Source: an uncultured Candidatus Altimarinota bacterium
Lineage (GTDB): Bacteria; Patescibacteriota; Gracilibacteria; CAIRYL01
Assembly (NCBI GenBank): GCA_947311645.1
Contig: CAMZKZ010000041.1
Location: forward strand, 1 to 38,616
Direction of reading: 5' to 3'
Length of the DNA stretch: 38,616 nt
Part shown: positions 10,930 to 35,171 of the stretch, one piece after another
How positions within the stretch are numbered: position 1 is the first letter of the stretch
Layout of the letters: every line of letters begins with the position of its first letter
Notes under the pieces: generated by a model
The model's database searches: none
Seen by the model: only the letters and a program-made list of their open reading frames with translations
What the model was told of the DNA's origin: nothing
Made by a program: the position numbers and the translations under genes

Positions 10930-10971
10930 TTTCGTACAAAAACAATATATTTACAAATATCACACATACAT

Positions 10972-11259: not shown

Positions 11260-11267
11260 TAGAGTGT

Positions 11268-11510: not shown

Positions 11511-11540
11511 ATTATTTTTCTATAAAAAAATCTAACTCTA

Positions 11541-14593: not shown

Positions 14594-14648
14594 TTAATTT
14601 ATATAAATTAATACATCTGAAATCATAGTAGCATATAAAATATTTTTT

Positions 14649-14677
14649 TTGTAATTATAAAATCTTCATGATAGAAT
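14649..14677 (+). promoter_or_regulatory. Sigma-70-like promoter candidate for the MazG-like/GT2 genes
   Basis: TTGTAA (14649-14654), a 17-nt spacer, then TAGAAT (14672-14677), about 34 nt upstream of the ATG at 14711. Confidence 0.4.
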
Positions 14678-14710
14678 TTTTACAATATACTTCTTCAATA
14701 TATAAAATAT

Positions 14711-15142
14711 ATGACTGATACAAAACAACTTTCTTTTCAAGAAATTATTTCTTCTGTTGAAGAATTTCATGACGCATTTGGTATTGAAAATAAATATACT
14801 CCAACTCTTACAGATAAAGACACTGCAATGTTGCGGTACAAACTTATGAGAGAGGAAAATGAAGAATATTTAGAAGCATGCGAAAATAACGATATTGTTG
14901 AAATTGCAGATGCACTTGGAGACCAGCTTTATATACTCTGTGGAACAATTTTAAAACATGGATTACAGGATAAAATAGAAGAAGTATTTACAGAAATACA
15001 ACGAAGCAACATGTCTAAATTGGACAAAAACGGAAAACCTATTATAAACGATGGAATTATTGATTCAACTCGACCAGTAGGAAAAGTTTTAAAAAGTGAT
15101 CAATACTCGAAACCAAATATTACAGATATTTTACACAAATAA
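14711..15142 (+). CDS. MazG-like nucleotide pyrophosphohydrolase family protein
   Basis: 143-aa all-helical ORF with the EExxE...ExxD metal-binding pattern (REENEEYLEACENNDIVEIADALGDQLY). Confidence 0.65.
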   Translation: MTDTKQLSFQEIISSVEEFHDAFGIENKYTPTLTDKDTAMLRYKLMREENEEYLEACENNDIVEIADALGDQLYILCGTILKHGLQDKIEEVFTEIQRSNMSKLDKNGKPIINDGIIDSTRPVGKVLKSDQYSKPNITDILHK

Positions 15143-15150
15143 AGACTCAC

Positions 15151-16350: not shown

Positions 16351-16366
16351 TATCAGAGTTTTTTTA
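16333..16366. terminator. Bidirectional hairpin terminator between convergent genes
   Basis: A-run+CTCTGA (to 16346), loop GTAATA, then TCAGAG+T-run (from 16353). The hairpin overlaps both stop codons. Confidence 0.55.
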
Positions 16367-16988
16367 TATTTTCTGGGGCTGCGCCACTTTTTAAACTTTT
16401 TGCTAATTTTACTGCCTTTAGCGGTGTCATATATGAAAACTGCGTTGTTTTCTTTTTTGCAGGTTCTTCAACTCGTATATTTGAAGCTTTTTTACATCTC
16501 CCTTGGCATACATGGCTTTTTTTATATGTAATTCCATTGTTTTCAAATTCTTCAACAGAGGGGGGTATATCATTTTCGTTACACATACGCTCCCAAATAT
16601 ATGGACCATAATGTTCTCCGCATGATTTTTTACTTGCACAGACTGATAATATGAGTTTTCGTGGAGATTTTTTCTTTTTTGGTTTTGTTTTTTTTGTAAC
16701 AGGTTTTACAATCGTATTTTTACTATTCCCTGTTTTATTCTCAGTTGTATTCTTTTTTTTCTGAGGTTTATATTTATTATTACCCTGTTCTCTCTCTCTC
16801 CCGCTCTCTCCCGCTCTCTCTCTTTTTTCCTTTTTTTCTTCTTTTATACTTCCTGTTGTCTTTGCTGTTATCTTTCTTACAGTCTTTCCTTTCGGGATTT
16901 TTTTTGTAATTTTTCTTTCAAAGGCTTCAAGTTTTTGTAATGCATCAACCTTTTTATTATCATCTACTTTGGTATTATGCTGTGTCAT
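16353..16988 (-). CDS. Lysine-rich protein with a C-terminal thioredoxin-like [2Fe-2S] ferredoxin-type domain
   Basis: The C-terminal ~100 aa shows a Cys pattern CASKKSC ... CQGRC and surrounding residues (ILSVC, NIRVEE, SYMTPLKAVKLAKSLKSG) like thioredoxin-like ferredoxins. The N-terminal ~130 aa is K/E/T-rich and low complexity. The track start at 17054 is TTG, so I use the first ATG at 16988. This is the only gene here ending in TGA. Confidence 0.45.
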   Translation of the reverse strand: MTQHNTKVDDNKKVDALQKLEAFERKITKKIPKGKTVRKITAKTTGSIKEEKKEKRERAGESGREREQGNNKYKPQKKKNTTENKTGNSKNTIVKPVTKKTKPKKKKSPRKLILSVCASKKSCGEHYGPYIWERMCNENDIPPSVEEFENNGITYKKSHVCQGRCKKASNIRVEEPAKKKTTQFSYMTPLKAVKLAKSLKSGAAPENIKKL

Positions 16989-17040
16989 ATGGGTAAATAT
17001 GTAAATATATAATTTTATACTAAAGAGTATATTTTTAATC

Positions 17041-18504
17041 TTATTTTTTCTCAAGAGATTTTACTAACTGTTTAAAATAATTTCCACGCTCTTCAAAATT
17101 TTTATATTGATCAAAGCTTGATGCACTTGGCGAAAATAAACAAATCGATTTATGAGAAGAAAGAGATGCTACATGCATGAGAAGATCTTTTAGGTCTTTT
17201 TTATATATTATTGTTTTTGCTTTTTTTTCTTCTGATTGCAGGCTCTGTAATTTTTTTTCTAAAATTTTTCCTGTCTCTCCTGTTAATAAAATATTTTTCA
17301 CCGATGATTCGACTATAAAATCAATTAACTCGTCTAAACACACTCCTCTATCGAATCCTCCCAATAGTATTGTTTCAAAAGAAGCATTATATATTTTTTC
17401 TAATTTTTCCATAGCACGCATTCCAGAAATAGTAGAAGATGGAATGGTTGAAATAGAATCATTTACATACAGTATTGTTTTGTTTTTACGAGGAGAAACA
17501 GGGGTAAGAACTTCTAATCTATGAGGTAGTGAGGGAAAAGAATTTACACATTGCACAAACTCATTTTCATTTTTCCATAATTCATATATATCACAAATTA
17601 TTTTTACAACACGAATAGTATCTTTATGCAAAGAAATATTTTGCATACTTTCATAATATGATTTTGAATCTTCTCCAAAGTAATATTTATTTTTTCGTTT
17701 ATTTGAACACTCTAATGCTGTATTTTCAAGAAATTTTTTATTTTCAATCGAAATATAATTATCAAATATTCCCTTTGTATTATCGCCTATTGTAAAAATT
17801 CTTTTTTTTGCATTAAAATAGTGCTCTGCATTTTTATAATAATCTAAATGTTCTGGGAAAAGATTTAATAATACCGCAATATATGGACCAACTGTTATTT
17901 TTTCAAGCTGATGCGATGAAAATTCATGAATAACTATTGCATCTTCTGTTATATTTTCTAGTGTATCAAAGACTGGAACTCCAATATTTCCCACCAGAAA
18001 TGTATTTTTTCCAGCCGATAAAAAGAGATGATGAAGTAAGCTTGCTGTTGTACTCTTTCCCTTTGTTCCTGTAATTCCTATTGTTTGCGATCCGAAAAAC
18101 TGCAGAAATAAATCTGAAAGCGAAGTAATATTAAAACGATGAATATCATCATCAGTAATATTTTCATGAAAACATGAGACACCTGGTGATTTCACTGTAA
18201 TATCTGATTCTCCTAAATTTTTCAAATATCCTTCTCCTGAATATACAATAATTTCTATATTCTCTCTCTTTTGTGCATTAGTATTTTTCTGACATTGCAA
18301 GAGGTACTCATCTAAAATATCTTGAGAAAGATATTTATCAAAAATAAAAATTTTATTTATATGTATCTCTTCACGCAATTGCATTCGCAATAAAAAGGAT
18401 AAAAAAGATTTTCCTTCTTTACCAAACCCTAAAATTCCAAATGTTTTATATTGAGAAAGCGAAGTAATAAGATTTTTCAATGATGAATGGGAAACATGCG
18501 ACAT
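17041..18504 (-). CDS. murD: MurD-like Mur ligase (UDP-MurNAc-L-Ala--glutamate ligase), divergent
   Basis: N-terminal Rossmann GILGFGKEGKS, ATP P-loop GITGTKGKSTT and LPHRLEV. The usual MurD NDSKATN block reads NDSISTIP. The track start at 18525 is TTG, and the first ATG is at 18504. Confidence 0.7.
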   Translation of the reverse strand: MSHVSHSSLKNLITSLSQYKTFGILGFGKEGKSFLSFLLRMQLREEIHINKIFIFDKYLSQDILDEYLLQCQKNTNAQKRENIEIIVYSGEGYLKNLGESDITVKSPGVSCFHENITDDDIHRFNITSLSDLFLQFFGSQTIGITGTKGKSTTASLLHHLFLSAGKNTFLVGNIGVPVFDTLENITEDAIVIHEFSSHQLEKITVGPYIAVLLNLFPEHLDYYKNAEHYFNAKKRIFTIGDNTKGIFDNYISIENKKFLENTALECSNKRKNKYYFGEDSKSYYESMQNISLHKDTIRVVKIICDIYELWKNENEFVQCVNSFPSLPHRLEVLTPVSPRKNKTILYVNDSISTIPSSTISGMRAMEKLEKIYNASFETILLGGFDRGVCLDELIDFIVESSVKNILLTGETGKILEKKLQSLQSEEKKAKTIIYKKDLKDLLMHVASLSSHKSICLFSPSASSFDQYKNFEERGNYFKQLVKSLEKK

Positions 18505-19984: not shown

Positions 19985-21034
19985 TTATCGAAACACTTGA
20001 TTCATTCTGTCTGGAGACTCTAATAAAAAGTCTGCTAAGGTCATAGCAACCATACTTTCTAATACTGGAACCAATCGCGGAGGAATTGTTGGATCATGTC
20101 GTCCACCAATAACAAAATCAGAAATTTCTCCATTTGGAGTGTTTGCTTTTTGCTTTTGTGAAATAGAAGGAGTAGGTTTTACAGATACTGTAATAATAAT
20201 ATCATCTCCCGTTGTTAATCCTCCAGAAATCCCCTCTTTTCGTTTATTTTGCATAGATCCAACCTGATGCTTTGCCTTGCTTCCAATACCATATTCAAAA
20301 CTTCTCACAGCACCACACGACATAATTCCTCTCGCTAATTCTCCTTCGATTTTTCCAAAAACAGGAGTTCCTAAATATTTTGCACAATTTTTAATACAAA
20401 TAGTAATTTCTCCTCCAACACTTTCACTTTTTCTTTTTGCGTCTATTACAGCCTCTATCATTTTTTCCGCAGCTTTTTTATCTCCACAACGCACTGGGTT
20501 TTTTTCTATTTCAGCAGTATCAAAATCGGCATGAGAAATATCACAACTGTCTACTCCTGCTAAACTTGAAACATGGGCAATAATTTGTGTTGCATTATTC
20601 TCTGCAAGAATTTTCTTTGCAAATGTACCACCAATAACTCGTGCCAATGTTTCTCGTCCAGAACTTCTTCCTCCTCCTCGATGATCCCTATGTTCATATT
20701 TATAAAACCACCCCTCATCTGCATGACCTGGTCGAAATACTTCTTTTAAAAAATCGTAATCTTTTGATGCTTGATTTTGATTTCTCACAATACATGCAAT
20801 TGGTGTTCCTATTGTTTTTCCTTCAAATATTCCTGATAAAATTTCTACTTGGTCTTTTTCTATTCTTGGTGTTGCCATTGCACTTTGCCCTGGTTTTCTT
20901 CTGTTTAATTCTGCTTGAATTTCTTCAGTCGATATTTCAAGACCTGCAGGACACCCATCAATAACAGCTCCAAGTGCTACACCATGACTTTCTCCAAAAG
21001 TAGTAACTCTAAAATTTCTTCCAAATGTATTCAT
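19985..21034 (-). CDS. aroC: Chorismate synthase
   Basis: MNTFGRNFRVTTFGESHG at the N-terminus, plus RPGHAD and GGRSSGRET motifs. 349 aa. Confidence 0.95.
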   Translation of the reverse strand: MNTFGRNFRVTTFGESHGVALGAVIDGCPAGLEISTEEIQAELNRRKPGQSAMATPRIEKDQVEILSGIFEGKTIGTPIACIVRNQNQASKDYDFLKEVFRPGHADEGWFYKYEHRDHRGGGRSSGRETLARVIGGTFAKKILAENNATQIIAHVSSLAGVDSCDISHADFDTAEIEKNPVRCGDKKAAEKMIEAVIDAKRKSESVGGEITICIKNCAKYLGTPVFGKIEGELARGIMSCGAVRSFEYGIGSKAKHQVGSMQNKRKEGISGGLTTGDDIIITVSVKPTPSISQKQKANTPNGEISDFVIGGRHDPTIPPRLVPVLESMVAMTLADFLLESPDRMNQVFR

Positions 21035-21059
21035 AGTATTATATTGTTATAGTATTGTA

Positions 21060-21479
21060 TTAACGAGACTGTTTGGTAGCAATAAAATTTTGATAACTCA
21101 TTTCATAATTTGTTTCTCCTGGTAAATAATGCACAGAAGATAAACATAATAAAATAGCATTTGTGCTAAAATTTTTAAATTCATGCCATACATTTTTTCC
21201 AACATAAATAGCCTTTTGAGGAGAGTCAAGAAGAATTTCTTTTTTTCCTAATCCATCGGTATCTATAACAGCAGTACATGTCCCCGCAATACAAAGAAAA
21301 ATTTCTTCTTCGATGAAATGAGAATGCGAACCACGAATCATATTTTCTGGTGTCGAATAAAGAAAATATGTTCGCTTTGGAATAAATGGAAGATTTTTAT
21401 TGAATTCTATAGGAACCAATACACCTCTTTCATCTTTGTATTCTGGAAATACAAATTCATAAAACACAGAATTTTTCAT
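21060..21479 (-). CDS. FdtA/WxcM-like cupin (TDP-4-keto-6-deoxy-sugar 3,4-ketoisomerase family)
   Basis: 139 aa with DERGVLVPIEF...LPFIPKRTYFLY...RGSHSH...NVWHEF, the typical FdtA-type cupin pattern. Confidence 0.65.
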   Translation of the reverse strand: MKNSVFYEFVFPEYKDERGVLVPIEFNKNLPFIPKRTYFLYSTPENMIRGSHSHFIEEEIFLCIAGTCTAVIDTDGLGKKEILLDSPQKAIYVGKNVWHEFKNFSTNAILLCLSSVHYLPGETNYEMSYQNFIATKQSR

Positions 21480-21626
21480 TATTGTAACAAATATATGATA
21501 TATCTATACTCTATCATAATTTATAAAATTCAAGCGAATAAAAATAAATCATGATAAAATAAAATTGCTACTATGTTCATGAATAAAATGAACACACTCT
21601 AATTTACTACATATTTATTTTTCAGA

Positions 21627-22784
21627 ATGATAAACCCAAATCAAACAATAGGATTTATAACAGGAGGGCAACTTGGTCAGATGATGATTCAATCTTTTTT
21701 ACCATTTCGACAAAATGAAAAAATTTTTGTTTTAGATGGAAATGAAAATTGCTCATGTGCACCATATGCAAATGAAGTTTTTACAGGGTCTAGTAAAGAC
21801 TTTTCCACTGTTTTAGAATTTGGAAAAAAATGCGATACTCTTATTTTAGAATTTGAACATGTAAATATTGAAGCACTGGAAGCATTAGAGAAATTAGGGA
21901 AAAAAGTATTTTGCCAATCCAAATATATTAAAATCATACAAAATAAAGGCTTACAAAAACAGTTTTATACAGAAAATAATATTCCAACGGCATCCTATAC
22001 TACTATAAAAAATAAAGAAGATTTTATACAAAAAGCACAGAACAATACAATAAAATTTCCTGTCATGCAAAAAACATTTCTTGATGGATATGACGGAGGC
22101 GGTGTTACAAAAATCAATACTATTGCAGATATTGAAACAAAAGCATTTAACACAGCAAGTATTCTAGAAGAATGCGTACATATCACACGAGAATTTTCTT
22201 TAATCTGCGGACGTGACCAACATGGAAATGAATTTCAATATCCACTTATTGAGCAATTTTTTCATGAAAAAACAAATATCGTAGACTGTATAACTTCACA
22301 CTGTGAAATAGATTCTAACACACAATCTCAAGTTAAAACTATTACTCATGCAATACTCTCATCATTTACCGGTGCAGGACTTTGGGCAATAGAATTATTT
22401 CTTGATACCAATAGAATGGTGCTGGTAAACGAAATTGCTCCACGCGTTCATAATTCTGGACACCAAACTATAGAAGGAAACTACTGCTCGCAATTTGAAC
22501 AATACATGCGAATTGCATTGGGGTATACAGTAGGAAATACAGAAGAAATAAAACCAAGTATCACTGTTAATCTCCTTGGTGCAGAAAAGCATTTTGGAAA
22601 AGTGCGATATGAAGGAATTGAAGAAGTAATGAAGTTAAAAAATGTCTCAGTTCATTTATACGGAAAATCTGAAACAAAACCACATAGAAAAATGGGACAT
22701 ATAACGGTGCAACACAACACACTAAAAGAGTGCTGGAATACTATAAAAACTATAAAACAAAGAGTAAAAGTTTATGCTTTATAA
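21627..22784 (+). CDS. purK: N5-carboxyaminoimidazole ribonucleotide synthase (ATP-grasp)
   Basis: IGFITGGQLGQMM at the N-terminus, an ATP-grasp core and NEIAPRVHNSGHQTIE, the characteristic PurK block. Confidence 0.85.
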   Translation: MINPNQTIGFITGGQLGQMMIQSFLPFRQNEKIFVLDGNENCSCAPYANEVFTGSSKDFSTVLEFGKKCDTLILEFEHVNIEALEALEKLGKKVFCQSKYIKIIQNKGLQKQFYTENNIPTASYTTIKNKEDFIQKAQNNTIKFPVMQKTFLDGYDGGGVTKINTIADIETKAFNTASILEECVHITREFSLICGRDQHGNEFQYPLIEQFFHEKTNIVDCITSHCEIDSNTQSQVKTITHAILSSFTGAGLWAIELFLDTNRMVLVNEIAPRVHNSGHQTIEGNYCSQFEQYMRIALGYTVGNTEEIKPSITVNLLGAEKHFGKVRYEGIEEVMKLKNVSVHLYGKSETKPHRKMGHITVQHNTLKECWNTIKTIKQRVKVYAL

Positions 22785-22792
22785 TATAAATT

Positions 22793-23329
22793 ATGCAAGA
22801 AGAGAATCAAAAAAAATCGATAATAACACATGTAGAAAAAAAAATTTATAAAAACTTGGTTCTTACGCATAAAATGCATAAAAACCAAGCAGAAGTGTAT
22901 GAAAAAGAAGTATCACTCATTAAGCTCTTATTAATCATAACTACTATTTCTGTATTTATAGTTTTAATAGCTCCTATTGATTACAATATTTCATGGGGAA
23001 TAAAATTTTCACTTGCACTTATTGATTTATTTTTAATTTTATATGAATCTGGATTTCGACCAGAAGAAAAACTACAAATTCATAAAAATGCCGTAAGCCA
23101 ACTGCTCAATTTACGAAACACATTTGCTATTGCAATGTCAGACTATATATTGGGACGAATTAACCAAAAAGAATTTTTACATATTCGAAATAAAACATCA
23201 CAACGTGCCGATAGTATTTATTCAAGCACTCCAACTGTTACGAAAAAATGTGTACAAAAAGCAAAAGAAGAAACACGAAAATATCTTAATAAAAATGCAG
23301 ATTATTTGCTTACAGATATTAAACAATAG
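22793..23329 (+). CDS. SLATT/DUF4231-like 2-TM protein (putative membrane effector or sensor)
   Basis: 178 aa. An N-terminal helix is followed by two closely spaced TM helices (LLLIITTISVFIVLIAP; FSLALIDLFLILY) and a C-terminal helical segment (EEKLQIHKNAVSQLLNLRN...). This is the SLATT architecture, recognised by pattern only. Confidence 0.35.
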   Translation: MQEENQKKSIITHVEKKIYKNLVLTHKMHKNQAEVYEKEVSLIKLLLIITTISVFIVLIAPIDYNISWGIKFSLALIDLFLILYESGFRPEEKLQIHKNAVSQLLNLRNTFAIAMSDYILGRINQKEFLHIRNKTSQRADSIYSSTPTVTKKCVQKAKEETRKYLNKNADYLLTDIKQ

Positions 23330-23330
23330 A

Positions 23331-26300
23331 TTATTTTTTAATTTGTTTTTTTTCACACTTTGTATTTATCATTTCAGCAAGAATTGAAGCACCAATTATT
23401 AAACTCGTTCCCCACATAAGGTGTGAAGTTATTTTAATCTCTCCTAAGATAAATGATTCAACAAAAATAGTAATTAAAATTGCAATGTTGAACATGAGAA
23501 ATGCTATAAACCCATCCATTCGTTTATATGCCTCAAATGTTAATAATGTCCCAAGTCCCCATAATGCCCCCAATCCTACAGCCCAAAAAATAGAAATAAA
23601 TGGTAATTCTATAAAATACGAATACGAATAAAGAACCAATGGTAATGAACACAGAAAGGAAATAAAGTATAAATAAAAGTTTAAGAAATAGGCCTCATTA
23701 CCTCTAAACTTTTTTGTATATTGAATTTGTGCAGTTACAAAAATAACATCGGCAAACATATAACAAATAGCATAAATATTTCCCATTAATGAATTAGCTG
23801 ATCCAGAAACAAGATCTTTATAAAAAATTAAAGATGCTCCAACTCCCCCCAAAAGAAATATAATAAACATTTTTATAATATTCCCCCTTTCGTTAAAATA
23901 TGAAGTTGTCGATTTCCAAAATATAAAACCGATGAGAAGTGCAAGAATAGGAGCAAAACCATTTAATAAAATAAAGCTTGTTCCAGAAGTAGATTGTGAG
24001 CTTAAAATTAAAAATAAAATCAAAGAAAGCATAGAGAGCATCATTGCTATAAAATACCAATCTATTTTTAATTTATAATTTTTTTGTATTGCCTTTTTTC
24101 CTAAAAATAATACAGAAAGAAAGGTGAAAATACTCGCACCAAGTAATAATAAAGGAGCTTGTAAGTCGAATCGAATATCAGAAAGGGGGCTATATCGAAT
24201 AATTAAAGGCTCTATCCCCCAAATAATGACTGCACCAATACGCAGAAAATACCCTATTATTTTTTCTTTTTGTTTTTTTTGATACTCAGAGAGCGTAATA
24301 GAGGGGGTCTTGTTATTTGCTATCTTTTTTTGTGATACAAATATTGCTGGTAATCCCATAGAAAAAACAAGTAAAATAAGAGGAAAGTAAAAATTTAGAT
24401 TATAAATATCATAATTATGCTGAAAGAATATATAAATATACCCCAACGATACAATAAAATTTATTGCAATAATAGAAAGTAATACAGATATTTTATTGCG
24501 AATAGCAGCAAAATAATTATTTAAAAATATATATGTTGAAACATTTGCCGCAAGAATAAACCCCGCACCAAAATAAAATAAAAAATGATTTTCTGATAGG
24601 CCAGAGATAAGCAATGTAAAAATCAATACGGAAATTCCTATTGGAAAAGCCAGAAAAAAAGCTATTTTCAGTAAAAATGAAATGGAAGTCGCATATGAAC
24701 ACATGAGTGAAGGTTTAATATTTTGTACAAATGTAATAATATTTTTTTTAGAACTTTCAACAAGCATGCTTCCTTTTATTTCCTTCCTTTCTTTTTTCAT
24801 TGTAAGATTTTTAATATCCACAGATGTCTTTTCTGCAACTGCTAATACAACAGATTCTACATCTGAAAATAATGAAAACGATGAAGAAAAATGTAATTTT
24901 TGTTTTTTTACACTCTGTTTTTTTTTGGTATGCGATTTATTTTTTATATATTCTTCGTATAAATATAAGCATTCATATTCCCCTATTCTGCCTTCATAAA
25001 TTCGCACATACAACTCTTCAATAGAAGAACAATTCACATCTGTAGACCGTAAAAAATCAATAGTATCACAGAGTGTATCTGTCGAACCCATTCTTTTTTC
25101 ATCAAAAACAGCTTGAAGAATATTATGCCCTTTTTCTAACTTTTCATCATACGAAACACAAGAGAGCATTTCTGAAATTTTCTCCTTATACAGAAGAGAG
25201 GAATTCAACCAAGGTCGTTTCAATTGAGTCGTATTTGAAAATGAAAACTCAATAATATCATTATTTTTTACAATAGTATCCAATGGTTTTTCATGAGTAT
25301 TTATACGCACTGTACTAATATTTTGAAAACGATCTGGATACAATAATATACCTGCATCGAGTGCTGTAGCCCCTCTTGCAATATAATTCTTTCCATATTC
25401 TGGATTATGAATCGTTAACTGAGGAGTTAAAAGATTATTTGTAATAGAATCAAGTGTTTGCTCAGATTCTTTATGTAAAAGAGACAAGGATCTATTTGAT
25501 AATTCTTCAAGCTTATACTCTTTATTATAAACATCTATAAATGCTCCAATCGTATTTCGTTCATACATTTTTTTCGATACAATATGAACTTCAATAATTT
25601 CTGAGTTATTCAAAATATACTGTGCATGCAATGCTTGATATTTATTTATCTTTGGACGAGAAATATAATCGAGAAAAGTATATTTTTTTAAATAAAGTTG
25701 TGTATTTAAACGAGAAAATGCCATGAAACAGTCTTTTTCATCTTCTAATTCTAGAATTAAATATTTATCTCTTTTTTTTCGATTCATAAAACTATTGTAT
25801 TCGAAAAAAATATGAGCATCTGGAAAAAATGATGAAAGAGTTGTAATACAAGACATCTGAGAATCCTCATTTATATCACTATTATCTATAGGAATATGTA
25901 ATGCTCTTGCACATGCATTTTCTAAAAGATTTTTCAGACTCCATATACCAAGGCGTTTTGCCGATGCGACATATATAAATATTGCCTCTTGTACTTTTTT
26001 CTTTCTTTTTTGTGCATTTTTTTTCCCTGCGATTGTTATAATATTATGCAGTCTATCAAATATTTTAATAAGCAAAATACGACAATCTTGTTTTGCATAA
26101 TGAAATATTTTTTCAATAGTTTTTTTTGTACGTTCTTCTTTTGTGTGCTTTTTTAAAATTTCATCACCAGGAGCACAATCTATATCCGAGACTTTACTTA
26201 CTCCTTCTATCAAGGTATATACGGTTTCTCCAAATATTTTTTTCACCTTTTCTGAAATTTTTTTGCGTGCCAATACTGGTAAAACACCTTCTTCTTCATA

Positions 26301-26660
26301 ATCCTCTATTGTATCGTGTAAAAGAGTTGCAGATAAAAAATCTACACATGGTTTATAAGGAAGAGAAAGCAATGCAACAATTAACGGGTGTGTTATAAAC
26401 GCCGCACCAGACTCTCTTCTTTGTTTTTTGTGTACCTCTTTTGCAAATAAAAAAGCATTCTCGAGTTGTTTTTTAGCACTTATACTCGAATTGTAGTGAG
26501 AAAATAAAAAGATTAAATTTTGAAAAAGAAACTCTTCCCCTTTTGATTCTAGTACCTCAATAGCATCAAAATTTTCATGTGTAGAAAAAAAATCAACACT
26601 ATAGTATTGATTTTTCATATTTTCTGTTATTACATCTGTAGTATTTTCTAAATTTTTCAT
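23331..26660 (-). CDS. Long RelA/SpoT homologue (intact HD hydrolase, degenerate synthetase, TGS) fused to a C-terminal polytopic membrane region with an EamA/DMT-like module
   Basis: - HD domain, about nt 26031-26453: ITHPLIVA, TLLHDTIED, FDRLHNI.
- Synthetase-like region, about nt 25521-25823: YQALHA and EVHIVSKKMYE, in place of the usual YQSLHT and EVQIRT..MH..AE.
- TGS, about nt 25245-25427: GATALDAG...NNDIIEF.
- About 14-15 hydrophobic helices across nt 23361-24698. The last ~10 are EamA-like (RIGAVIIWGIEPLIIRY). Confidence 0.8.
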   Translation of the reverse strand: MKNLENTTDVITENMKNQYYSVDFFSTHENFDAIEVLESKGEEFLFQNLIFLFSHYNSSISAKKQLENAFLFAKEVHKKQRRESGAAFITHPLIVALLSLPYKPCVDFLSATLLHDTIEDYEEEGVLPVLARKKISEKVKKIFGETVYTLIEGVSKVSDIDCAPGDEILKKHTKEERTKKTIEKIFHYAKQDCRILLIKIFDRLHNIITIAGKKNAQKRKKKVQEAIFIYVASAKRLGIWSLKNLLENACARALHIPIDNSDINEDSQMSCITTLSSFFPDAHIFFEYNSFMNRKKRDKYLILELEDEKDCFMAFSRLNTQLYLKKYTFLDYISRPKINKYQALHAQYILNNSEIIEVHIVSKKMYERNTIGAFIDVYNKEYKLEELSNRSLSLLHKESEQTLDSITNNLLTPQLTIHNPEYGKNYIARGATALDAGILLYPDRFQNISTVRINTHEKPLDTIVKNNDIIEFSFSNTTQLKRPWLNSSLLYKEKISEMLSCVSYDEKLEKGHNILQAVFDEKRMGSTDTLCDTIDFLRSTDVNCSSIEELYVRIYEGRIGEYECLYLYEEYIKNKSHTKKKQSVKKQKLHFSSSFSLFSDVESVVLAVAEKTSVDIKNLTMKKERKEIKGSMLVESSKKNIITFVQNIKPSLMCSYATSISFLLKIAFFLAFPIGISVLIFTLLISGLSENHFLFYFGAGFILAANVSTYIFLNNYFAAIRNKISVLLSIIAINFIVSLGYIYIFFQHNYDIYNLNFYFPLILLVFSMGLPAIFVSQKKIANNKTPSITLSEYQKKQKEKIIGYFLRIGAVIIWGIEPLIIRYSPLSDIRFDLQAPLLLLGASIFTFLSVLFLGKKAIQKNYKLKIDWYFIAMMLSMLSLILFLILSSQSTSGTSFILLNGFAPILALLIGFIFWKSTTSYFNERGNIIKMFIIFLLGGVGASLIFYKDLVSGSANSLMGNIYAICYMFADVIFVTAQIQYTKKFRGNEAYFLNFYLYFISFLCSLPLVLYSYSYFIELPFISIFWAVGLGALWGLGTLLTFEAYKRMDGFIAFLMFNIAILITIFVESFILGEIKITSHLMWGTSLIIGASILAEMINTKCEKKQIKK

Positions 26661-26826
26661 GGTCTTATAGATAAGTACTTCTCTAAAAATTATTCAATTT
26701 ATTATCTGTAATATAACAGAGTATAGCATAACATGAGTTTTTATAACAATATGGTTTCTGTAAATTATATTTCGTAATCAATAACATATTGATACACTCG
26801 TAATAGAATATTTTTATTTATAGAGA

Positions 26827-27824: not shown

Positions 27825-29198
27825 ATGTTTTCATTAAAATTTGGAGGAACTTCTATGGGGTCAGCAGAGGCAATTGCACAAACAGCACAAATTATTATTT
27901 CTCATCCAGAACAGCATAAATCAGTAGTTGTTTCAGCAATGAGCGGAGTAACAAATTTGCTTATTTCTGCGGCAGAATGTGCAACAAAAACCGATAAAAT
28001 TTGTTATAAAAATTATTTAGAAGAAATAAAAGAAAAACATATTACGGCACTTGATACATTAGTTACAAATAAAGATTTGCATACAGAAGGGAAAGAATTT
28101 ATAGAAAAAAAACTATTAGGACTTTCTGGTTTTTTACATGCACTCACTGTTATCGGAGAAGTTTCATCGCGTTCAAATGACGAAATTATCTCTCTTGGAG
28201 AAATTTTATCTGCAAAACTTTTATCACTGCATTTAAAAGATATAAATGAAAAAGTAGAATTTATTTCTTTAGAAAATATTGTTTCTGATATGTTTGAACA
28301 CGAACATATAAAACCTGATAAACATTTTTTTGAATGTTTTTCTCATAAACTTGGAAAATTACTTACCCCTCTTCTTGAAGAAAATATAACCCCTATCTGT
28401 ACTGGATTTTTTGGAAAAATTCCTGATGGTATTGTGAATGCGGTAGGACGAGGATACTCTGATTTTACGGCTGCATTAGTTGGAAAAGCATGCAATGCAA
28501 CAGAAATTCAAATTTGGACAGATGTAAGTGGAATCTTATCAACAGATCCTCGAATCGTAAAAGAAGCACATGTAATAGATGAATTATCGTTTAATGAAGC
28601 AACAGAACTTGCAAATTTAGGAGCAAAAGTTATTCATCCTCAAACAATTTGGCCTGCGGTAAAAAATAATATTGTAGTACGAATTAAAAATACAATGGCT
28701 CCAAACGATATGGGAACTGCTATTACAAAACTTGGAAAAAATTCTAACCATTCGTTTAAGTCTATAACTGTTCAAAAAGATATAACAGTGCTTACTGTAA
28801 AATCATCAAATATGAGTGAGTCAGGAATTTTAATAGACCTATTTCAAGCGTTTGCATCATATGATATTTCTATAGATTTAGTTTCAACTTCAGAATCAAG
28901 TATTTCTGTAACAATTCAAAATGGGCATAAAAATTTATCGAAATTGGTAACAGAACTGGAAAAAAAATATAATGTAGAAATTGTACATAATAAATCTATT
29001 ATTGCAATTGTAGGAAATGAAATGTTATACAATATGGGAGTTGCTGGTCGATTTTTTTCTGCACTTTCCAACGCAAAAATCAATATAAATATGATTTCAC
29101 AAGGTGCAAATGAATCAAATATTTCTGCTGTAATTGCTGGGAAAGATGCAAATAATGCTGTGAAAGTTGTACATAAGGAGTTTTTTAATACAATATAA
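27825..29198 (+). CDS. lysC: Aspartate kinase
   Basis: KFGGTSMGS at the N-terminus, VGRGYSDFTAA, and C-terminal tandem ACT-like region (IIAIVGNEM...GVAGRFFSAL). Confidence 0.9.
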   Translation: MFSLKFGGTSMGSAEAIAQTAQIIISHPEQHKSVVVSAMSGVTNLLISAAECATKTDKICYKNYLEEIKEKHITALDTLVTNKDLHTEGKEFIEKKLLGLSGFLHALTVIGEVSSRSNDEIISLGEILSAKLLSLHLKDINEKVEFISLENIVSDMFEHEHIKPDKHFFECFSHKLGKLLTPLLEENITPICTGFFGKIPDGIVNAVGRGYSDFTAALVGKACNATEIQIWTDVSGILSTDPRIVKEAHVIDELSFNEATELANLGAKVIHPQTIWPAVKNNIVVRIKNTMAPNDMGTAITKLGKNSNHSFKSITVQKDITVLTVKSSNMSESGILIDLFQAFASYDISIDLVSTSESSISVTIQNGHKNLSKLVTELEKKYNVEIVHNKSIIAIVGNEMLYNMGVAGRFFSALSNAKININMISQGANESNISAVIAGKDANNAVKVVHKEFFNTI

Positions 29199-29199
29199 A

Positions 29200-31089
29200 A
29201 TGTTTCAACAATTTTTCAAAAAAATAATTGAAAATAAAGCAATAGTAGGAACTCTTATTTTTTTCGTATTAGGAATTTTTACACGATTTTCATATTTAGA
29301 ACACCCAAAGGAAGTAGTTTTTGATGAATTTCATTTCTTTCATTTTATTGCAGAATACGAAGAGGGTCAGTATTTTTTTGATATTCATCCCCCTCTTGGG
29401 AAACTTATTTTATGGGCAAATGCACAAATGAATGGATTGCCAGAATTTATTGAAGAAAATAAAGAAAATAGTCGCACACAAGAAAATCTTGAAACAGAGC
29501 AAAAACAATTAAAAAAAGAGATTGTTGCATTGCAAAAAAATACGACAAATATGAATGCTGAAATACAGCAAAAAATTGGAGAACTCAAAAAAGTATACAA
29601 CGCAAATAAAGAAAAAATAGAATATTTATCACATAATAGCGGAGGTCTTTCGAGTATTAGTATAGGAAAAGAATATAGCGATACATTAGATATTGCCGGA
29701 ATTCGTAGTCTTCCGGCATTTTTTGGTGCTGCTCTTGTAGCTCTCATGTTTTACTTTGCATATTTTTTAACATCATCATATGCAATTTCTACACTGATAG
29801 GAATGCTCACATTGTTTTCACCTGCATTTCTTGTGGAATCACAATATGTGCTCATGGACTCAATGCTTATGTTTTTTGTTGTTTTGGGAGCATTGTTTTC
29901 TTTTCAATATTATGCGAACCCAAGCTGGAAAAATTGGATAGGAGTTATTATCACTTCTGCTATTGTTATTTCCATAAAATGGACGGGTGCAACAGCGATT
30001 GCCATTGCTGGTATTATATGGATAATACTCCTCTTTCAATCAAAGATTTCGCTTAAAAAATCTATAGCACAATTTTTCGCATTTTGGATTACTGTTCCTG
30101 CTTTTTATATGGGGACATTCGCAATTCATTTTGCATTATTACCAAATTCTGGAGAGGGAGACGCATTTCATACTCCAGAATTTAGAGCGACTTTAGAAAA
30201 CACATCAGAAAATGTAAATACTACAATTATCCCAAAAACATTTTTCCTTAATACAAAAAATTTTTCATCACCAGCTACAATAGAGCCTTTGGATTTTTTT
30301 CTCAAAACAAAACTCAACCCACATTTTAATCCACTTCTATCAGAACCACTTGATTATCAAAAAGATGAATATATTCTTGATTGGGAAAATTGGAGATTTT
30401 ATGGGAAATTTATAGAATTAAATCGACAAATGGGAGAACGAAGTGCATCTATCCGAGATACTCATCCATTTGCAAGCCGACCATCTGATTGGATTCATGG
30501 GAAAAAAGCAATTTATTTATGGAATAAAAATAAAAAAGAAAATCAAGAAGATATACTGCCAGAAACATTTATAGAAAAATTTTGGAATACTACTATTGGG
30601 TCGCATTTTACAAAACCAAAAGTTTTTAATGATACCTATGTACAACAACTTCATTTATTTCCAAATGCAACGCTGTGGTCCATACTTCCCTATTCCACTA
30701 TTCTATTGGCAATCAGCCTGCTTCTTTTTCTCTTCTTTTCTGTCTATAAAAAGAAATATGAAATAAATAATAAGATAATAAGTCATACATTTTTTATCCT
30801 TATTCTTATTCTTATAAACATTCTTCCCTTTCTTTTAGTAGAACGACCACAATTTTTATACCATGCATTTGAAGGTGTTTTATTCGCAATTTTAGGACTT
30901 GGACTCACTCTTTATTTTCTCTTTCTTGCTCCATCGTATAGAAATACAAAATATGTTTCCTATATTCTATGGGGAATTACAATTGTTACCACCATTGCAC
31001 TGGTGCTTTTATTTACAATAACACTCCCGCTTATTTACGGTTTTTCTTTTCATGATTCTATGGCACATACAATGTTTCAATTCTTTTAA
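29200..31089 (+). CDS. PMT-family (GT39-like, GT-C) dolichyl/polyprenyl-phosphate-mannose protein mannosyltransferase
   Basis: Signature VVFDEFHFFHFIAEY...FFDIHPPLGKLILW and many TM helices. The track start at 29167 is TTG. ATG at 29200 (MFQQFF) lies 1 nt after the lysC stop. Confidence 0.8.
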   Translation: MFQQFFKKIIENKAIVGTLIFFVLGIFTRFSYLEHPKEVVFDEFHFFHFIAEYEEGQYFFDIHPPLGKLILWANAQMNGLPEFIEENKENSRTQENLETEQKQLKKEIVALQKNTTNMNAEIQQKIGELKKVYNANKEKIEYLSHNSGGLSSISIGKEYSDTLDIAGIRSLPAFFGAALVALMFYFAYFLTSSYAISTLIGMLTLFSPAFLVESQYVLMDSMLMFFVVLGALFSFQYYANPSWKNWIGVIITSAIVISIKWTGATAIAIAGIIWIILLFQSKISLKKSIAQFFAFWITVPAFYMGTFAIHFALLPNSGEGDAFHTPEFRATLENTSENVNTTIIPKTFFLNTKNFSSPATIEPLDFFLKTKLNPHFNPLLSEPLDYQKDEYILDWENWRFYGKFIELNRQMGERSASIRDTHPFASRPSDWIHGKKAIYLWNKNKKENQEDILPETFIEKFWNTTIGSHFTKPKVFNDTYVQQLHLFPNATLWSILPYSTILLAISLLLFLFFSVYKKKYEINNKIISHTFFILILILINILPFLLVERPQFLYHAFEGVLFAILGLGLTLYFLFLAPSYRNTKYVSYILWGITIVTTIALVLLFTITLPLIYGFSFHDSMAHTMFQFF

Positions 31090-31835: not shown

Positions 31836-32687
31836 ATGAAACAATATTTAGAACTTTTAGAAGATGTAAAACAAAACGGTGCAAGCAAAGATGACAGAAC
31901 AGGGGTTGGAACACGGTCTGTTTTTGGGAGACAATTTCGATGTGATTTATCAAAGGGGTTTCCACTTTTAACAACGAAAAAAGTTTTTCTTAAAGGTGTT
32001 ATTCACGAACTGCTATGGTTTTTACAAGGAGAAACGAATATTAAATATTTAGTAGATAATGGAGTTCATATTTGGGACGAATGGGCAAACAAAGACGGAG
32101 AACTTGGTCCTATATATGGTTCACAATGGAGAAATTTTTGTGATCCAAACAATGAAGAAAGTAAAAAAAATGGAATAGACCAAATTTCTGAATTAATTGC
32201 AAATCTTAAAAAAAATCCATACTCACGAAGACATATTGTTTCTGCATGGAATCCGATGGCTATACCAGATGAAAATAAAAGCTTTGCAGAAAATATTGCA
32301 AATAACAAATCAGCATTACCAACATGCCATAGTTTTTTCCAATTTTATGTTTCGCCAGATAATAAACTTTCGTGCCAATTATACCAACGAAGTGCTGATA
32401 TTTTTCTTGGTGTTCCTTTCAATATTGCAAGTTATGCACTTTTAACACATATGATTGCACAAGTTTGCGGTTTTGAAGTTGGAGACTTTGTTCATACTTT
32501 TGGAGATTTACATATTTATAATAATCATATAGAACAGGTAAACGAACAGCTTTCACGAAGTCCAAAAGCATTACCAACAATAAAACTCAACAAAGAAATT
32601 AGCAATATTTTTGACTTTACTTACGACGATTTTGAAATCATTGATTATAATCCAGAACCAACAATAAAAGCACCAATAGCGGTGTAG
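31836..32687 (+). CDS. thyA: Thymidylate synthase (ThyA type)
   Basis: [11 protein letters not shown]...[21 protein letters not shown], catalytic [12 protein letters not shown] and [21 protein letters not shown]. Confidence 0.95.
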
Positions 32688-32734
32688 CCTTTCAATAGAA
32701 TAAATATATACATATAACATTTGCATAAAACTTT

Positions 32735-33175
32735 ATGTTTTCTAAACTCTCACTTCCTCTCAAAATATTTACAATAACTCTTCTTATTGTGGTTTTGGGC
32801 TATATTGCGTATATCAATACAGATAGCTTACTCGCAAGTACAGATGGAATACGCAGTCTTCTACAAAATTCTGGACTGAGTGCAGGAGATCAAAATGTAT
32901 CACTCCCTAAAATTGATTCTATAAATGGAGCAGATGATAAAACGAATCATTTATTATATAAATTTATAGAAATTTTAATAACACTTGCGGGGATTATTGC
33001 CGTTGTGTTTATTGCAATAGGAGGAATGGAGTATACAATATCTGCAGGTGATTCTGATAGAAAAAATGGAGCAAAAGCAAAAATTATGTATGCGATTCTT
33101 GGTCTTCTTGCTGTAATATTTTCATATGCAATTTTCACAAATGGAATAAATTTCTTTGAAGTTTCAGAACAATAA
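32735..33175 (+). CDS. Small membrane protein resembling TrbC/VirB2-type (T4SS) pilins
   Basis: An N-terminal signal/TM segment, then the hairpin LITLAGIIAVVFIAIGGMEYTISAGDSDRKNGAKAKIMYAILGLLAVIFSYAIF. This is the two-helix, G-rich loop and AK motif pattern of these pilins. Confidence 0.4.
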   Translation: MFSKLSLPLKIFTITLLIVVLGYIAYINTDSLLASTDGIRSLLQNSGLSAGDQNVSLPKIDSINGADDKTNHLLYKFIEILITLAGIIAVVFIAIGGMEYTISAGDSDRKNGAKAKIMYAILGLLAVIFSYAIFTNGINFFEVSEQ

Positions 33176-33227
33176 TGATATACTGAAGAAGTACAAAGAT
33201 GTACACTTATAATTTAAACATAAATAT

Positions 33228-33545
33228 ATGGCATTAAAAGTAGATGATTCAAATTTTGAAGCAGAAGTTCTAAACTCTGAACTTCCAGTTCTTGTAGATT
33301 TTTGGGCTCCGTGGTGTGGACCTTGTCAAATGATGGGACCAATTGTAGAAAAAGTTGCAAAAGAATACGAAGGAAAAGCAAAAGTTGTAAAATATGATGT
33401 ACAAGATAATCAAGAATTTTCAGCAAAATATGGAATTCAAGGTATTCCAGCTTTTAAAGTTTTTAAAGGCGGAAAAGTTGTAGATGAAGCAGTTGGTGCA
33501 ATGCCAGAAGATAATATTAAAAAAATTATTGATAACAATTTGTAG
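33228..33545 (+). CDS. trxA: Thioredoxin
   Basis: 105 aa with VLVDFWAPWCGPCQ and GIQGIPAFKVFKGGK. Confidence 0.95.
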   Translation: MALKVDDSNFEAEVLNSELPVLVDFWAPWCGPCQMMGPIVEKVAKEYEGKAKVVKYDVQDNQEFSAKYGIQGIPAFKVFKGGKVVDEAVGAMPEDNIKKIIDNNL

Positions 33546-33574
33546 TCATAAAAGTCATCAAAAGAAACTTCTTA

Positions 33575-33608
33575 ATACTGATAGAAACATTCTATCAGTA
33601 TTTTTTTT
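33575..33608. terminator. Bidirectional rho-independent terminator between trxA and murJ
   Basis: An 11-12 bp perfect stem TACTGATAGAA/TTCTATCAGTA (33576-33586 and 33590-33600), 3-nt loop, then a T8 run. Confidence 0.7.
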
Positions 33609-33617
33609 ATATTTTGC

Positions 33618-35171
33618 TTATAACATTTTTTTCAAATTGTAGAAGATATTTTTTTTCCAAACACTTCCTAATACTGAAAAAAAGAAGAGTGCGCCTATAC
33701 ATGAAATAAATATTATATTGAAATATGAATCTATTATATAAGCATTCAAAACAGAGAAAAAAATTCCCATTACAATAGATCCGAAAATACTAAGAATCAA
33801 TCCAGTCTTTTGTATTACCTCCACTCGTGAAGAAGCTGAAATAATATTTTTAGAATGTAAAAGAAAATACCCAACTGCAATAGAAATTACAAAACTTGCA
33901 ACATAGCTTATTCCAATTTGTATAGCAGGAGATAAAATATTTGATACATCACCCCATACATATTTAAACACGAGTATTGTTGCAATCAATGTTCCAATTT
34001 GACTAAATGTAATAAACATTGGTGTTTTTGTGTCTCCTGTTGCATTAAATGTCCGTACAAATAAGCTCAAAATTGACTCCAAAGGAATAGCAAGTGATAG
34101 TATAAGAAGTATAGAATTCAGAGTATTATATGTAGCTGAATCAATATGAATATCATATATCAATCCTAAAAAAGTACTTCCTATAAAATAAATTCCTACA
34201 GCCATAGGAAGTGTCCAAAATAATATTTTATATAGTGATACATAAAATGTTCTACTGAATTCTTCTTTTTTATTCTCTGCAAAAAGTAATGATAAAACTT
34301 GAAAAGCAGATGTTGCAATTGCAAAGCCAAAAATCATAACGGGTGCTGATTCTAAATTTCGTGCATATAAAAAGAGAGAATATAATCCTTCTTTATTCTC
34401 AAAACTCTGGGTAAAATTTTGAATACTTATGAGTGTAATTTGCAATGTTCCAACTGTTATCCACCGAAATGCCATAGATTTTGCTAATTCTTTTAGTTGT
34501 GGAGATGAAAAGTTAAACGATGGTAAAAATCGTATATCTGCAGAAATTTTAGAACAATATTCCCATAATCGAATTGCTAAATGCCCTATACTTCCAGCGA
34601 TTGCACCATATGCTGCTGCATAAATTCCATGTGTATCTGCAAAAAATAAAATTCCTATTAAAATTCCTATATTATAAAGAAGTGGAGAAAGTGCAGTTGA
34701 AAGAAAATGTTTATGTGCCATTAAAAAATTTCCTATAAAATTTGAAAGCGCAAAGAAAAAATTTGTTATAAAAAAAAGACGAGCAAGATTTGTAAATAAT
34801 TCTGGATCTTTTAAAAATTGTACAGAAAAAAAGAATGATGCAATTTCTGAAGTAAAAAATATTCCAAGCACACTTACCGCTGTAAATACTGTTAAAAGAG
34901 TTGCAAAAAAAACACCAAAAAGTGTGTATCCTGCTTTTTTATTTTTCTCTCTTTCTTGTAAAAAAAGTGGAGTAACAAGTCCTAAAAGTGCAGATGAAAC
35001 AAATACAATCATTATTATATCTGAAATAAGAAATGCAGAAAAATAACTATCGGTAATAGCAGTTGCCCCATAATATCGTGCAAAAAATAAATCTCTTACA
35101 ATTCCCAAAATGTAAGAAAGAAGAGTTCCAATAGAAAGAATGAATGCTGGAGAAAATATTTTAGAACTCAT
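33618..35171 (-). CDS. murJ: Lipid II flippase MurJ (MviN family)
   Basis: 517 aa, about 14 TM helices, N-terminal IVRDLFFARYYGATAITDSYFSAFLISD, the typical MurJ pattern. Confidence 0.85.
   Translation of the reverse strand: MSSKIFSPAFILSIGTLLSYILGIVRDLFFARYYGATAITDSYFSAFLISDIIMIVFVSSALLGLVTPLFLQEREKNKKAGYTLFGVFFATLLTVFTAVSVLGIFFTSEIASFFFSVQFLKDPELFTNLARLFFITNFFFALSNFIGNFLMAHKHFLSTALSPLLYNIGILIGILFFADTHGIYAAAYGAIAGSIGHLAIRLWEYCSKISADIRFLPSFNFSSPQLKELAKSMAFRWITVGTLQITLISIQNFTQSFENKEGLYSLFLYARNLESAPVMIFGFAIATSAFQVLSLLFAENKKEEFSRTFYVSLYKILFWTLPMAVGIYFIGSTFLGLIYDIHIDSATYNTLNSILLILSLAIPLESILSLFVRTFNATGDTKTPMFITFSQIGTLIATILVFKYVWGDVSNILSPAIQIGISYVASFVISIAVGYFLLHSKNIISASSRVEVIQKTGLILSIFGSIVMGIFFSVLNAYIIDSYFNIIFISCIGALFFFSVLGSVWKKNIFYNLKKML

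Follow-up and report, generated by a model that had tools for sequence, protein, structure and literature searches.

A predicted membrane-integral (p)ppGpp hydrolase fused to a DMT-type transporter in Gracilibacteria-related Patescibacteria

Introduction

Bifunctional Rel, the long RelA/SpoT homologue (RSH) represented by the structures from Bacillus subtilis (6YXA), Streptococcus equisimilis (1VJ7) and Thermus thermophilus (6S2T), is a cytosolic enzyme with the domain order HD-SYNTH-TGS-AH, in which the synthetase motifs GRxK, D264, R269 and EVQIRT are found together with a TGS-domain histidine (His420), a zinc-finger domain (ZFD) and activation by the ribosome. To our knowledge all characterised long RSHs are cytosolic, and what controls them is either the starved ribosome or a soluble partner protein separate from the enzyme. 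Regulators of SpoT and Rel include ACP, Rsd, EIIA-Ntr and DarB, and the RSH regulators that we know of are all separate soluble proteins. In the SpoT[Hs] enzyme of Acinetobacter baumannii (SpoT_Ab), which is soluble and independent of the ribosome, the C-terminal domains wrap the Core element and allosterically activate the HD domain (PMC9974481). Here we analyse a gene in which a long RSH runs directly into a membrane transporter of the drug/metabolite transporter (DMT) type. It lies at 23331..26660 of a stretch of 38,616 nucleotides (the window, from contig CAMZKZ010000041.1 of an uncultured Candidatus Altimarinota bacterium) and had been picked out in an earlier reading of the letters and their open reading frames (ORFs) without database searches, which we call the sequence-only reading.

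The fusion protein is like Rel in its order of HD, SYNTH, TGS and AH domains and in its hydrolase residues, which are identical, but it has lost the synthetase motifs, His420 and the ZFD. It also resembles SpoT_Ab (PDB 7QPR; Tamman et al. 2023, PMC9974481), in that an intact Mn-dependent HD site and a non-catalytic pseudo-synthetase are followed by a regulatory C-terminal region. However, SpoT_Ab keeps its ZFD, which the fusion has deleted, the ACT domain of the fusion runs into four transmembrane (TM) helices and a 10-TM DMT, and sequence identity between the two proteins is only about 16%. The synthetase was probably lost independently of the loss in SpoT_Ab, because related Patescibacteria proteins consisting of an RSH and four TM helices (RSH+4TM) still have live synthetase motifs. 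Orthology with proteobacterial SpoT is very unlikely, since the relatives of the fusion are Rel-like proteins of Patescibacteria.

In its last part the protein is like YddG (5I20), with two EamA repeats and 10 TM helices, except that the transporter is here the C-terminal third of an 1109-amino-acid (aa) enzyme. Fusions of transporters and sensors are familiar from the CbrA-type SLC5-histidine kinases, the Amt-kinase fusions and the transceptors of yeast, and those we know of carry kinases or cyclases, not alarmone hydrolases. The likeness to the present protein is one of possible working logic, with nutrient input coming from a transporter or partner rather than from the ribosome, and not of family membership. 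The searchable literature, including two RSH census papers and a Peribacteria genome paper, yielded no account of an RSH that carries TM helices or is fused to an EamA/DMT protein, which agrees with the earlier remark that the long RSHs described so far are soluble. Each component domain is of a familiar type; what is new is the way they are combined, together with the regulatory logic that this combination implies.

From its sequence, the protein is predicted to be a membrane-integral, monofunctional (p)ppGpp hydrolase, a long RSH of the [H+ s-] kind, belonging to bacteria of the Gracilibacteria/Peregrinibacteria type within the candidate phyla radiation (CPR). We hypothesise, tentatively and with somewhat less than even confidence, that this hydrolase is independent of the ribosome and that its regulatory C-terminus is coupled to the state of the transporter. 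The regulatory stack of TGS, helical and ACT domains is joined to the membrane modules through a connector of three residues, and occupancy or conformation of the DMT would be relayed along this stack, from ACT by way of the helical domain and TGS, until it reached the HD site. The rate of alarmone breakdown would then be set by the import or export of a small metabolite, probably not a nucleotide, and a hard-wired "transceptor" input would substitute for ribosome-based sensing of starvation.

Domain organisation of the fusion protein

The features of the gene are as follows, with approximate residue ranges in brackets.

23331..26660, minus strand: RSH[Hs]-4TM-DMT fusion ORF, ATG start, TAA stop, 1109 aa
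25896..26483, minus strand: HD (p)ppGpp-hydrolase domain (residues ~60-255), by Pfam HD_4
25506..25868, minus strand: pseudo-synthetase domain (~265-385), RelA_SpoT fold kept
25227..25427, minus strand: TGS domain (~412-478), aligning to the TGS of B. subtilis Rel and with beta-grasp secondary structure in the model
24936..25211, minus strand: alpha-helical (AH/HEL) domain (~484-575), by hhalign to the canonical C-terminal region
24693..24908, minus strand: ACT/RRM domain (~585-656), its last strand stopping 3 residues before TM1
24327..24692, minus strand: four-TM module (~657-778; TM helices 662-684, 693-713, 724-746 and 755-775), by hydropathy and model
24261..24326, minus strand: basic cytoplasmic linker (~779-800; KKIANNK...EYQKKQKEK), a K/R-rich loop
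23334..24260, minus strand: DMT/EamA transporter module with 10 TM helices (~801-1109), by Foldseek and EamA matches in the family

An intact hydrolase and a pseudo-synthetase

The N-terminal half carries the signature of an active alarmone hydrolase. Pfam HD_4 matches residues 69-240 (E 1.7e-21), and in a phmmer search against the PDB residues 66-554, spanning the HD, SYNTH, TGS and helical domains, align to B. subtilis Rel (6yxa, E 5e-25). In RelSeq numbering, which is common to B. subtilis Rel and is used here for all Rel residues, the hydrolase residues R44, H53, H77, D78, E81, D82, K141, D144, N148 and T151 correspond to R82, H91, H115, D116, E119, D120, K199, D202, N206 and T209 of the query, so that every catalytic residue is present and the HD motifs are intact, as had been read from the translation. 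The metal ligands H53, H77, D78 and D144 and the catalytic E81 and D82 do not vary in an alignment of 14 family sequences, all of which match Pfam HD_4, and among 45 family members their conservation is 95% or higher. A larger family alignment was made of these 45 full-length members together with 26 RSH+4TM proteins, 69 proteins in which an RSH is joined to a DMT (RSH+DMT) and 40 canonical RSHs, and in it the HD site residues are at least 95% conserved in all classes of the 140 membrane-associated RSHs. The Mn-dependent HD active site is thus judged intact from its residues, and (p)ppGpp 3'-pyrophosphohydrolase activity is predicted. When the N-terminal half of the AlphaFold model was compared with known structures using Foldseek, the best match was full-length SpoT (7qpr, E 4e-19, 737 columns), and Rel 6yxa was also matched.

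The domain that follows has kept the synthetase fold. Its Pfam RelA_SpoT match in the query (residues 305-373) has 25.8 bits, slightly under the gathering threshold (GA) of 27; the same model matches 14 of 14 aligned family members (best E 1.2e-11), the region aligns by structure to the N-terminal region of Rel (TMt 0.72-0.80), and the NCBIfam spoT_relA subfamily model gives 205 bits, well under its full-length cut-off. The catalytic signature is gone, as the sequence-only reading had proposed for checking by alignment to Rel. In pairwise phmmer alignment R241, K243, K251, D264, R269, Q326, R328 and H333 of Rel are replaced by P, A, S, L, a gap, H, V and Y, EVQIRT has become EVHIVS, and both GRxK and the subsequent MH..AE motif are absent. 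The MAFFT family alignment places other residues at some of these positions of the query, none of them catalytic. The glutamate of EVQIRT (E324) is kept in the query, and at this column the 45 members have R in 16, Q in 6 and E in 5. Loss of the ATP/Mg residues of the synthetase extends to both DMT-bearing classes (45 full-length and 69 RSH+DMT proteins aligned). What has been conserved, in the query and in nearly all members with a dead synthetase, is the acceptor guanine-nucleotide pocket (D298, N306, Y308, H312 and G339). By its residues the synthetase domain is therefore predicted to be a pseudo-enzyme that retains only this pocket.

The retained pocket gives some weight to a reverse wiring, in which the RSH part is the sensor and the DMT the output, with binding and turnover of (p)ppGpp at the HD site, or GDP/GTP in the guanine pocket, gating transport, so that the import or export of a metabolite would be governed by the alarmone level. 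Two further points are in keeping with such an arrangement, namely that the DMT belongs to an autonomous transporter family and that ACT, four-TM module and DMT are modelled as a tight unit (both described below). On the other hand, it is the catalytic and not merely the binding residues of the HD domain that are kept across the 140 membrane-associated RSHs, and turnover therefore seems to matter. The direction of signalling is distinguished by nothing in these data, and the same observations are compatible with a transporter that gates the hydrolase. We regard reverse wiring as unlikely. A different substrate for the HD site is a further alternative, which we place within the remaining share of our confidence.

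Loss of the parts that read the ribosome

The sequence-only reading had reported a TGS domain and a helical linker, and three comparisons support both: the alignment to Rel, a profile built from the TGS region of the family and hhalign. The family profile matches the TGS in every one of 40 canonical RSHs, although Pfam TGS itself matches only 1 of 14 members (E 0.002). His420, which we take to be the residue of the TGS domain by which Rel/RelA reads the 3' (CCA) end of tRNA, is histidine in all 40 canonical RSHs, tyrosine in the query and Y, F or L in the synthetase-dead classes, and it is retained in 15 of the 26 RSH+4TM proteins.

With hhalign, residues 481-658 align to the C-terminal regions of canonical RSHs at a probability of 97.8%, the helical domain and the ACT domain both being aligned. 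Between them is a gap of about 65 columns which corresponds exactly to the Cys-rich CxxC...H..C block (ZFD/RIS), deleted after the helical domain; the zinc finger that had been reported as apparently absent is indeed missing. In relatives, matches to Pfam AH_RIS cover the AH half of the model only. By contrast, the ACT/RRM domain had been described as a remnant, which does not hold: the AlphaFold model has a complete beta-alpha-beta-beta-alpha-beta fold at 585-656, and among the ACT domains that Foldseek finds to be similar is one from a GTP pyrophosphokinase (3ibw, TMt 0.70). Both elements through which Rel/RelA-type enzymes read ribosome and tRNA, His420 of the TGS and the ZFD/RIS, are missing in the query, and the parts that couple Rel/RelA to starved ribosomes are, on this sequence comparison, gone from the predicted protein.

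The membrane half

Hydropathy and the model place 10 DMT helices at 801-1100 and, with the four-TM module, 14 TM helices in total. The sequence-only reading had counted about five helices, a basic linker and a unit of about ten; the linker and the ten-helix unit stand, but four helices, not five, precede the linker. The loop that holds the linker (776-800) has 7 K/R per 25 residues, model confidence (pLDDT) is low at 779-784, and it is within this segment that free-standing DMT homologues begin. Of the lysines and arginines counted, 27 face the predicted cytoplasmic side and 4 the outside, in keeping with a cytoplasmic RSH part and an N-in/C-in orientation of the DMT.

The four-TM module found no match in Pfam, in NCBIfam or, by Foldseek, in the PDB. 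We considered whether it is a third DMT-like repeat and rejected this, as its hhalign probability against the DMT part is 0.1%. Within it N734 is invariant and R721 98% conserved among 45 members, and the module is also found without a DMT in some of the shorter relatives described below.

The identity of the last module as an EamA/DMT-like transporter, as had been proposed, is supported from two sides. Pfam EamA in the query (residues 964-1094) reaches 17 bits, under the cut-off of 28.2; the model is matched in 14 of 14 aligned family members, with a best E of 4.7e-20. Foldseek of the last ~310 residues of the model gives YddG (5i20) as the top match, with a TM-score of 0.76, followed by TPT, LicB, CST, SLC35B1 and Vrg4. 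NCBIfam has no curated model for this DMT subfamily, and what Foldseek recognises is the DMT fold in general. An assembly join, lack of DMT similarity and conserved synthetase residues were the three observations that, according to the sequence-only reading, would have told against the fusion as described, and none of them was made. Among 45 members E1068 is invariant, and conservation is 93% or more at Y804, G815, G941, Y981, N1058, E1096 and N1099; the TM core contains no conserved Lys or Arg.

Mean column identity falls in the order HD (0.56), DMT (0.47), TGS (0.42), AH (0.40), pseudo-SYNTH (0.38), 4TM (0.34) and ACT (0.29). The HD is thus the most conserved part and the DMT the second, which argues that both ends of the protein are under purifying selection. 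The AlphaFold model of the full length has pLDDT 78 and a predicted TM-score (pTM) of 0.51, and that of ACT, four-TM module and DMT alone has pLDDT 81 and pTM 0.74. These models suggest that ACT, 4TM and DMT pack as one unit, with an RSH head that is mobile or uncertain in its placement.

The fusion is a real gene

The gene is on the minus strand, a point on which the sequence-only reading is amended. It was right that the fusion is a single continuous ORF free of frame problems: there are no in-frame TAA, TAG or TGA codons between the ATG and the TAA stop, and GC content across the gene is flat at 0.27-0.29. Some Gracilibacteria decode UGA as glycine (code 25), and ORFs were therefore called again with TGA as a sense codon to test dependence on the code. 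The fusion ORF then gains 23 codons, upstream only, to 26729, through one TGA at 26694-26696. Homologues are without this extension, and the ATG at 26660 stands because the extension is not common to them. As there is no in-frame TGA and the stop is TAA, the fusion ORF is identical in codes 11 and 25. A genetic-code artefact was accordingly rejected, the coding sequence being the same under either code and the extension having no support from homologues.

The same architecture was found elsewhere. A word-indexed search gave 13 full-length homologues, 1100-1149 aa long; BLASTP puts their identity to the query at 25-60%, and the alignment at 23-61%. A false fusion, produced by chimeric assembly, an overlooked frameshift or stop codon, or UGA read as Gly, might be suspected from three things: the occurrence of code 25 in the lineage, the single TGA among the stops of 26 long ORFs of the window, and a short contig on which a DMT with 78% identity to the module stands alone. 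Against it stand dozens of independent assemblies with the same architecture, aligning through both junctions, together with the even composition, the TAA stop and the lack of in-frame TGA; the likelihood of such an artefact is negligible. The architecture recurs over its full length at 23-61% identity in independent NCBI, JGI, ENA and Logan assemblies, which excludes chance or assembly error, and the fusion is a real, single continuous gene.

With regard to the code of the window itself, its 26 long ORFs end in TAA (20), TAG (5) and TGA (1). The only TGA-terminated one, at 16353-17054 on the minus strand, has a TTG start and no Pfam match, and none of the long ORFs requires read-through of TGA. 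The first in-frame stop 5' of the fusion ATG is the TGA at 26694-26696. The code could be 11, 25 or one in which TGA is nearly unassigned, and the relatives are Gracilibacteria.

A family with three architectures

The search of other genomes that the sequence-only reading had called for was made as an exhaustive profile search over 1.84 billion representatives, with counts given as clusters at 50% identity. Class A, with the full RSH-4TM-DMT architecture of the query, has about 45 clusters. In class C (about 69 clusters, 905-965 aa) the RSH, again with a dead synthetase, runs straight into the DMT; one of these is named Candidatus Peribacteria. Class B (about 26 clusters, 755-850 aa) comprises RSH proteins with 3-5 predicted TM helices and without the DMT, of which just 7 of 26 are matched by the class A four-TM profile. 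About half of class B retains GRxK, D264, EVQIRT and His420. According to Pfam, two class B proteins with a live synthetase (P0173 and P0181) and a third outside class B (P0201) are without the RIS part. P0201, of 1104 aa, combines 4 TM helices with a live synthetase; it is without the HD..ED motif, and its long C-terminal region is unexplained.

The closest relatives come from metagenome-assembled genomes named 'Candidatus Gracilibacteria', Peribacteria and Peregrinibacteria, and databases label them simply as 'HD domain-containing protein', 'RelA/SpoT family protein', 'hypothetical protein' or 'DMT-like permease'. The sequences support a membrane-anchored, ZFD-less Rel in this branch of the Patescibacteria, to which a DMT would have become attached in two architectures. 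They also support a joint loss of the synthetase and of the tRNA-reading histidine in the DMT-bearing forms. Since the DMT is joined both with and without the four-TM module (classes A and C), the pairing of RSH and DMT appears to be selected.

One possibility that must be considered here is that the membrane part is only a tether, which localises a constitutive hydrolase or fixes its stoichiometry with the transporter, without allostery. Complete RSH+4TM genes that lack a DMT, some of them with a live synthetase, are what would be expected of this, and they imply that membrane anchoring predates the DMT or is independent of it; it also fits that the gene neighbourhood is not conserved among distant members. 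However, a 10-TM transporter is a costly anchor where four TM helices suffice, and an anchor does not readily explain why the DMT ranks second in conservation among the parts of the protein, why it has been attached in two modes, or why full TGS, AH and ACT domains are kept with a three-residue connector to TM1. A mere tether is, in our judgement, quite unlikely.

Free-standing relatives of the transporter module

A search with residues 655-1109 returned only free-standing DMTs, of 315-348 aa and 41-78% identical to the module. Two of these, at 78% and 57% identity, are closer to the module than are the modules of the nearest fusion homologues (55-56%). A clade at 41-44% identity comes from contigs assigned by binning to Gammaproteobacteria and Bacteroidales, where the neighbouring genes are ordinary ones. 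In a neighbour-joining tree, a quick, midpoint-rooted distance tree that is indicative only, free DMTs nest among the fused modules at 4 or more places, and class C modules are the sister group. To go by these sequences, the DMT is an autonomous type of transporter which has been joined to an RSH, and probably also separated from it, more than once.

The neighbours of the free DMTs are, in different cases, two methyltransferases, a nicotianamine-synthase-like gene with a GNAT gene, a thioesterase with a kinase-like gene, and an enoyl-CoA hydratase; no nucleotide-related genes were seen beside free-standing DMTs in the neighbourhoods examined. These neighbours bear on the earlier idea of a nucleotide import-and-degradation device, in which nucleotides or alarmones of environmental or host origin would come in through the DMT, to be degraded on entry by the HD domain. 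The DMT fold does also match nucleotide-sugar and ATP/ADP carriers (CST, Vrg4 and SLC35B1), and CPR bacteria often rely on external building blocks (PMC4736985). Yet the fold similarity is generic to DMTs and its top match, YddG, is an amino-acid exporter; the TM core has an invariant Glu (E1068) and conserved Asn instead of conserved Lys/Arg; the free-standing relatives adjoin methyltransferases, nicotianamine-synthase-like and GNAT genes or a thioesterase or kinase; and PurK is encoded in the window, so that purine synthesis is at least partly present. The device is disfavoured by the core residues and the neighbours in particular, and we hold it to be very improbable.

Two of the free DMTs deserve description. 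P0280 (L016 41-2453), at 57% identity, is followed by the nicotianamine-synthase-like gene (PF03059) and the GNAT acetyltransferase, an arrangement reminiscent of opine-metallophore operons that use a DMT exporter; all three P0280 contigs start 15-40 nt 5' of the gene. On L011 1-1028 (ENA ERZ27262679 k141_36901) the 78% identical DMT, of 315 aa, has an in-frame TAA 15 nt 5' of its ATG, and another ORF ends 11 nt 5' of the DMT. The last 22 residues of that ORF (KLLILLCLGSDYVVFRSFQHLK) are hydrophobic and too few to identify. L011 may represent the fusion in split form; of the upstream ORF, the short contig carries these 22 residues.

Coupling of transport and alarmone turnover

In its most specific form, our hypothesis states that in Gracilibacteria/Peribacteria the hydrolase has been rewired from ribosome to membrane, that the transport cycle of the DMT directly gates (p)ppGpp degradation, and that uptake of a metabolite derived from a host or the environment, rather than the charging of tRNA, would signal the fed state. 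We consider this form possible but doubtful, and several points weigh against coupling in general. The two RSH+4TM genes that we examined are complete, with unrelated genes downstream and no DMT after them, so the RSH part can function without a transporter. The coupling of alarmone turnover to transport, proposed already in the sequence-only reading, is plausible from anatomy only. In TM4 of the DMT the query has glycine at residue 901 (LLNNFAP to LLNGFAP; 23958-23960, minus strand), where 93% of the family has asparagine, and the nearest free-standing DMT has Gly-Gly at the corresponding position; this may reflect a change of specificity, or erosion of transport, in the sublineage of the query. 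Lastly, the cytoplasmic motifs of the DMT (K800/Y804, RMDG and the AE..N..E tail) are present in free-standing DMTs as well and are therefore not specific to the fusion.

If the two halves do communicate, the protein would constitute a new route of input into (p)ppGpp signalling and a rare enzyme-coupled DMT, and if the DMT gates the hydrolase it would be the first alarmone enzyme under the control of an integral transporter. This protein and well over 100 related clusters show that a whole lineage has stripped its long RSH of synthetase chemistry and of the parts that read the ribosome, kept the hydrolase and the regulatory stack, and welded these onto a DMT of working type. The system lends itself to experiment: the soluble half should be assayable like SpoT, the free DMT relatives are usable for ligand screening, and the RSH+4TM proteins are natural controls. 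It would also offer a handle on nutrient sensing in the poorly understood CPR bacteria.

Genomic context and other features of the window

On its divergent flank the fusion gene is accompanied by genes for homoserine dehydrogenase, aspartate kinase and a PMT-family glycosyltransferase, and on its convergent flank by those for a 178-aa SLATT_4 protein, PurK and chorismate synthase. The order hom, lysC, PMT / fusion / SLATT_4, purK, aroC is kept in the three closest genomes, but is absent around members at 30-34% identity and around the class C protein P0016. Synteny confined to close relatives points to an inherited neighbourhood and gives no signal of a functional operon, and we rejected the conserved neighbourhood as a clue to function. 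The window also encodes ribulose-phosphate epimerase. The sequence-only reading had spoken of a metabolically reduced cell; chorismate synthase, PurK, aspartate kinase, homoserine dehydrogenase and the epimerase, all encoded in the window, argue against an extremely reduced metabolism.

A promoter-like site lies in the divergent intergenic region, about 60 nt 5' of the ATG.

26720..26749, minus strand: promoter-like site TTGTTA-18-TATACT with TG, by consensus match alone

Promoter-like consensus matches are rarer here than in shuffled sequence, which is a weak basis for this site.

Scans of the window with Rfam models and for tRNA genes gave tRNA-Val(TAC) at 11-87 only. Four segments of 0.5-1 kb each (10478-11541, 14593-15151, 21034-21627 and 32687-33618) have no ORF of 150 aa or more and no Rfam or tRNA match.

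The PMT-family (dolichyl-phosphate-mannose protein mannosyltransferase-like) glycosyltransferase gene, at 29167-31089 on the plus strand, encodes 640 aa, has a TTG start overlapping the end of the aspartate kinase gene and is syntenic in two of the closest genomes (L002 and L003). SLATT_4 domains are 2-TM effectors, as a rule associated with conflict systems that work by nucleotide signalling. The SLATT_4 gene (22793-23329, plus strand, 178 aa; Pfam SLATT_4 E 5e-18) is convergent with the fusion gene and 1 nt from its stop, and is absent beside distant fusion homologues. Its product is 83-87% identical between the window and L002/L003; in L002 the corresponding values are 78% for PurK, 66% for Hom and 56% for the fusion.

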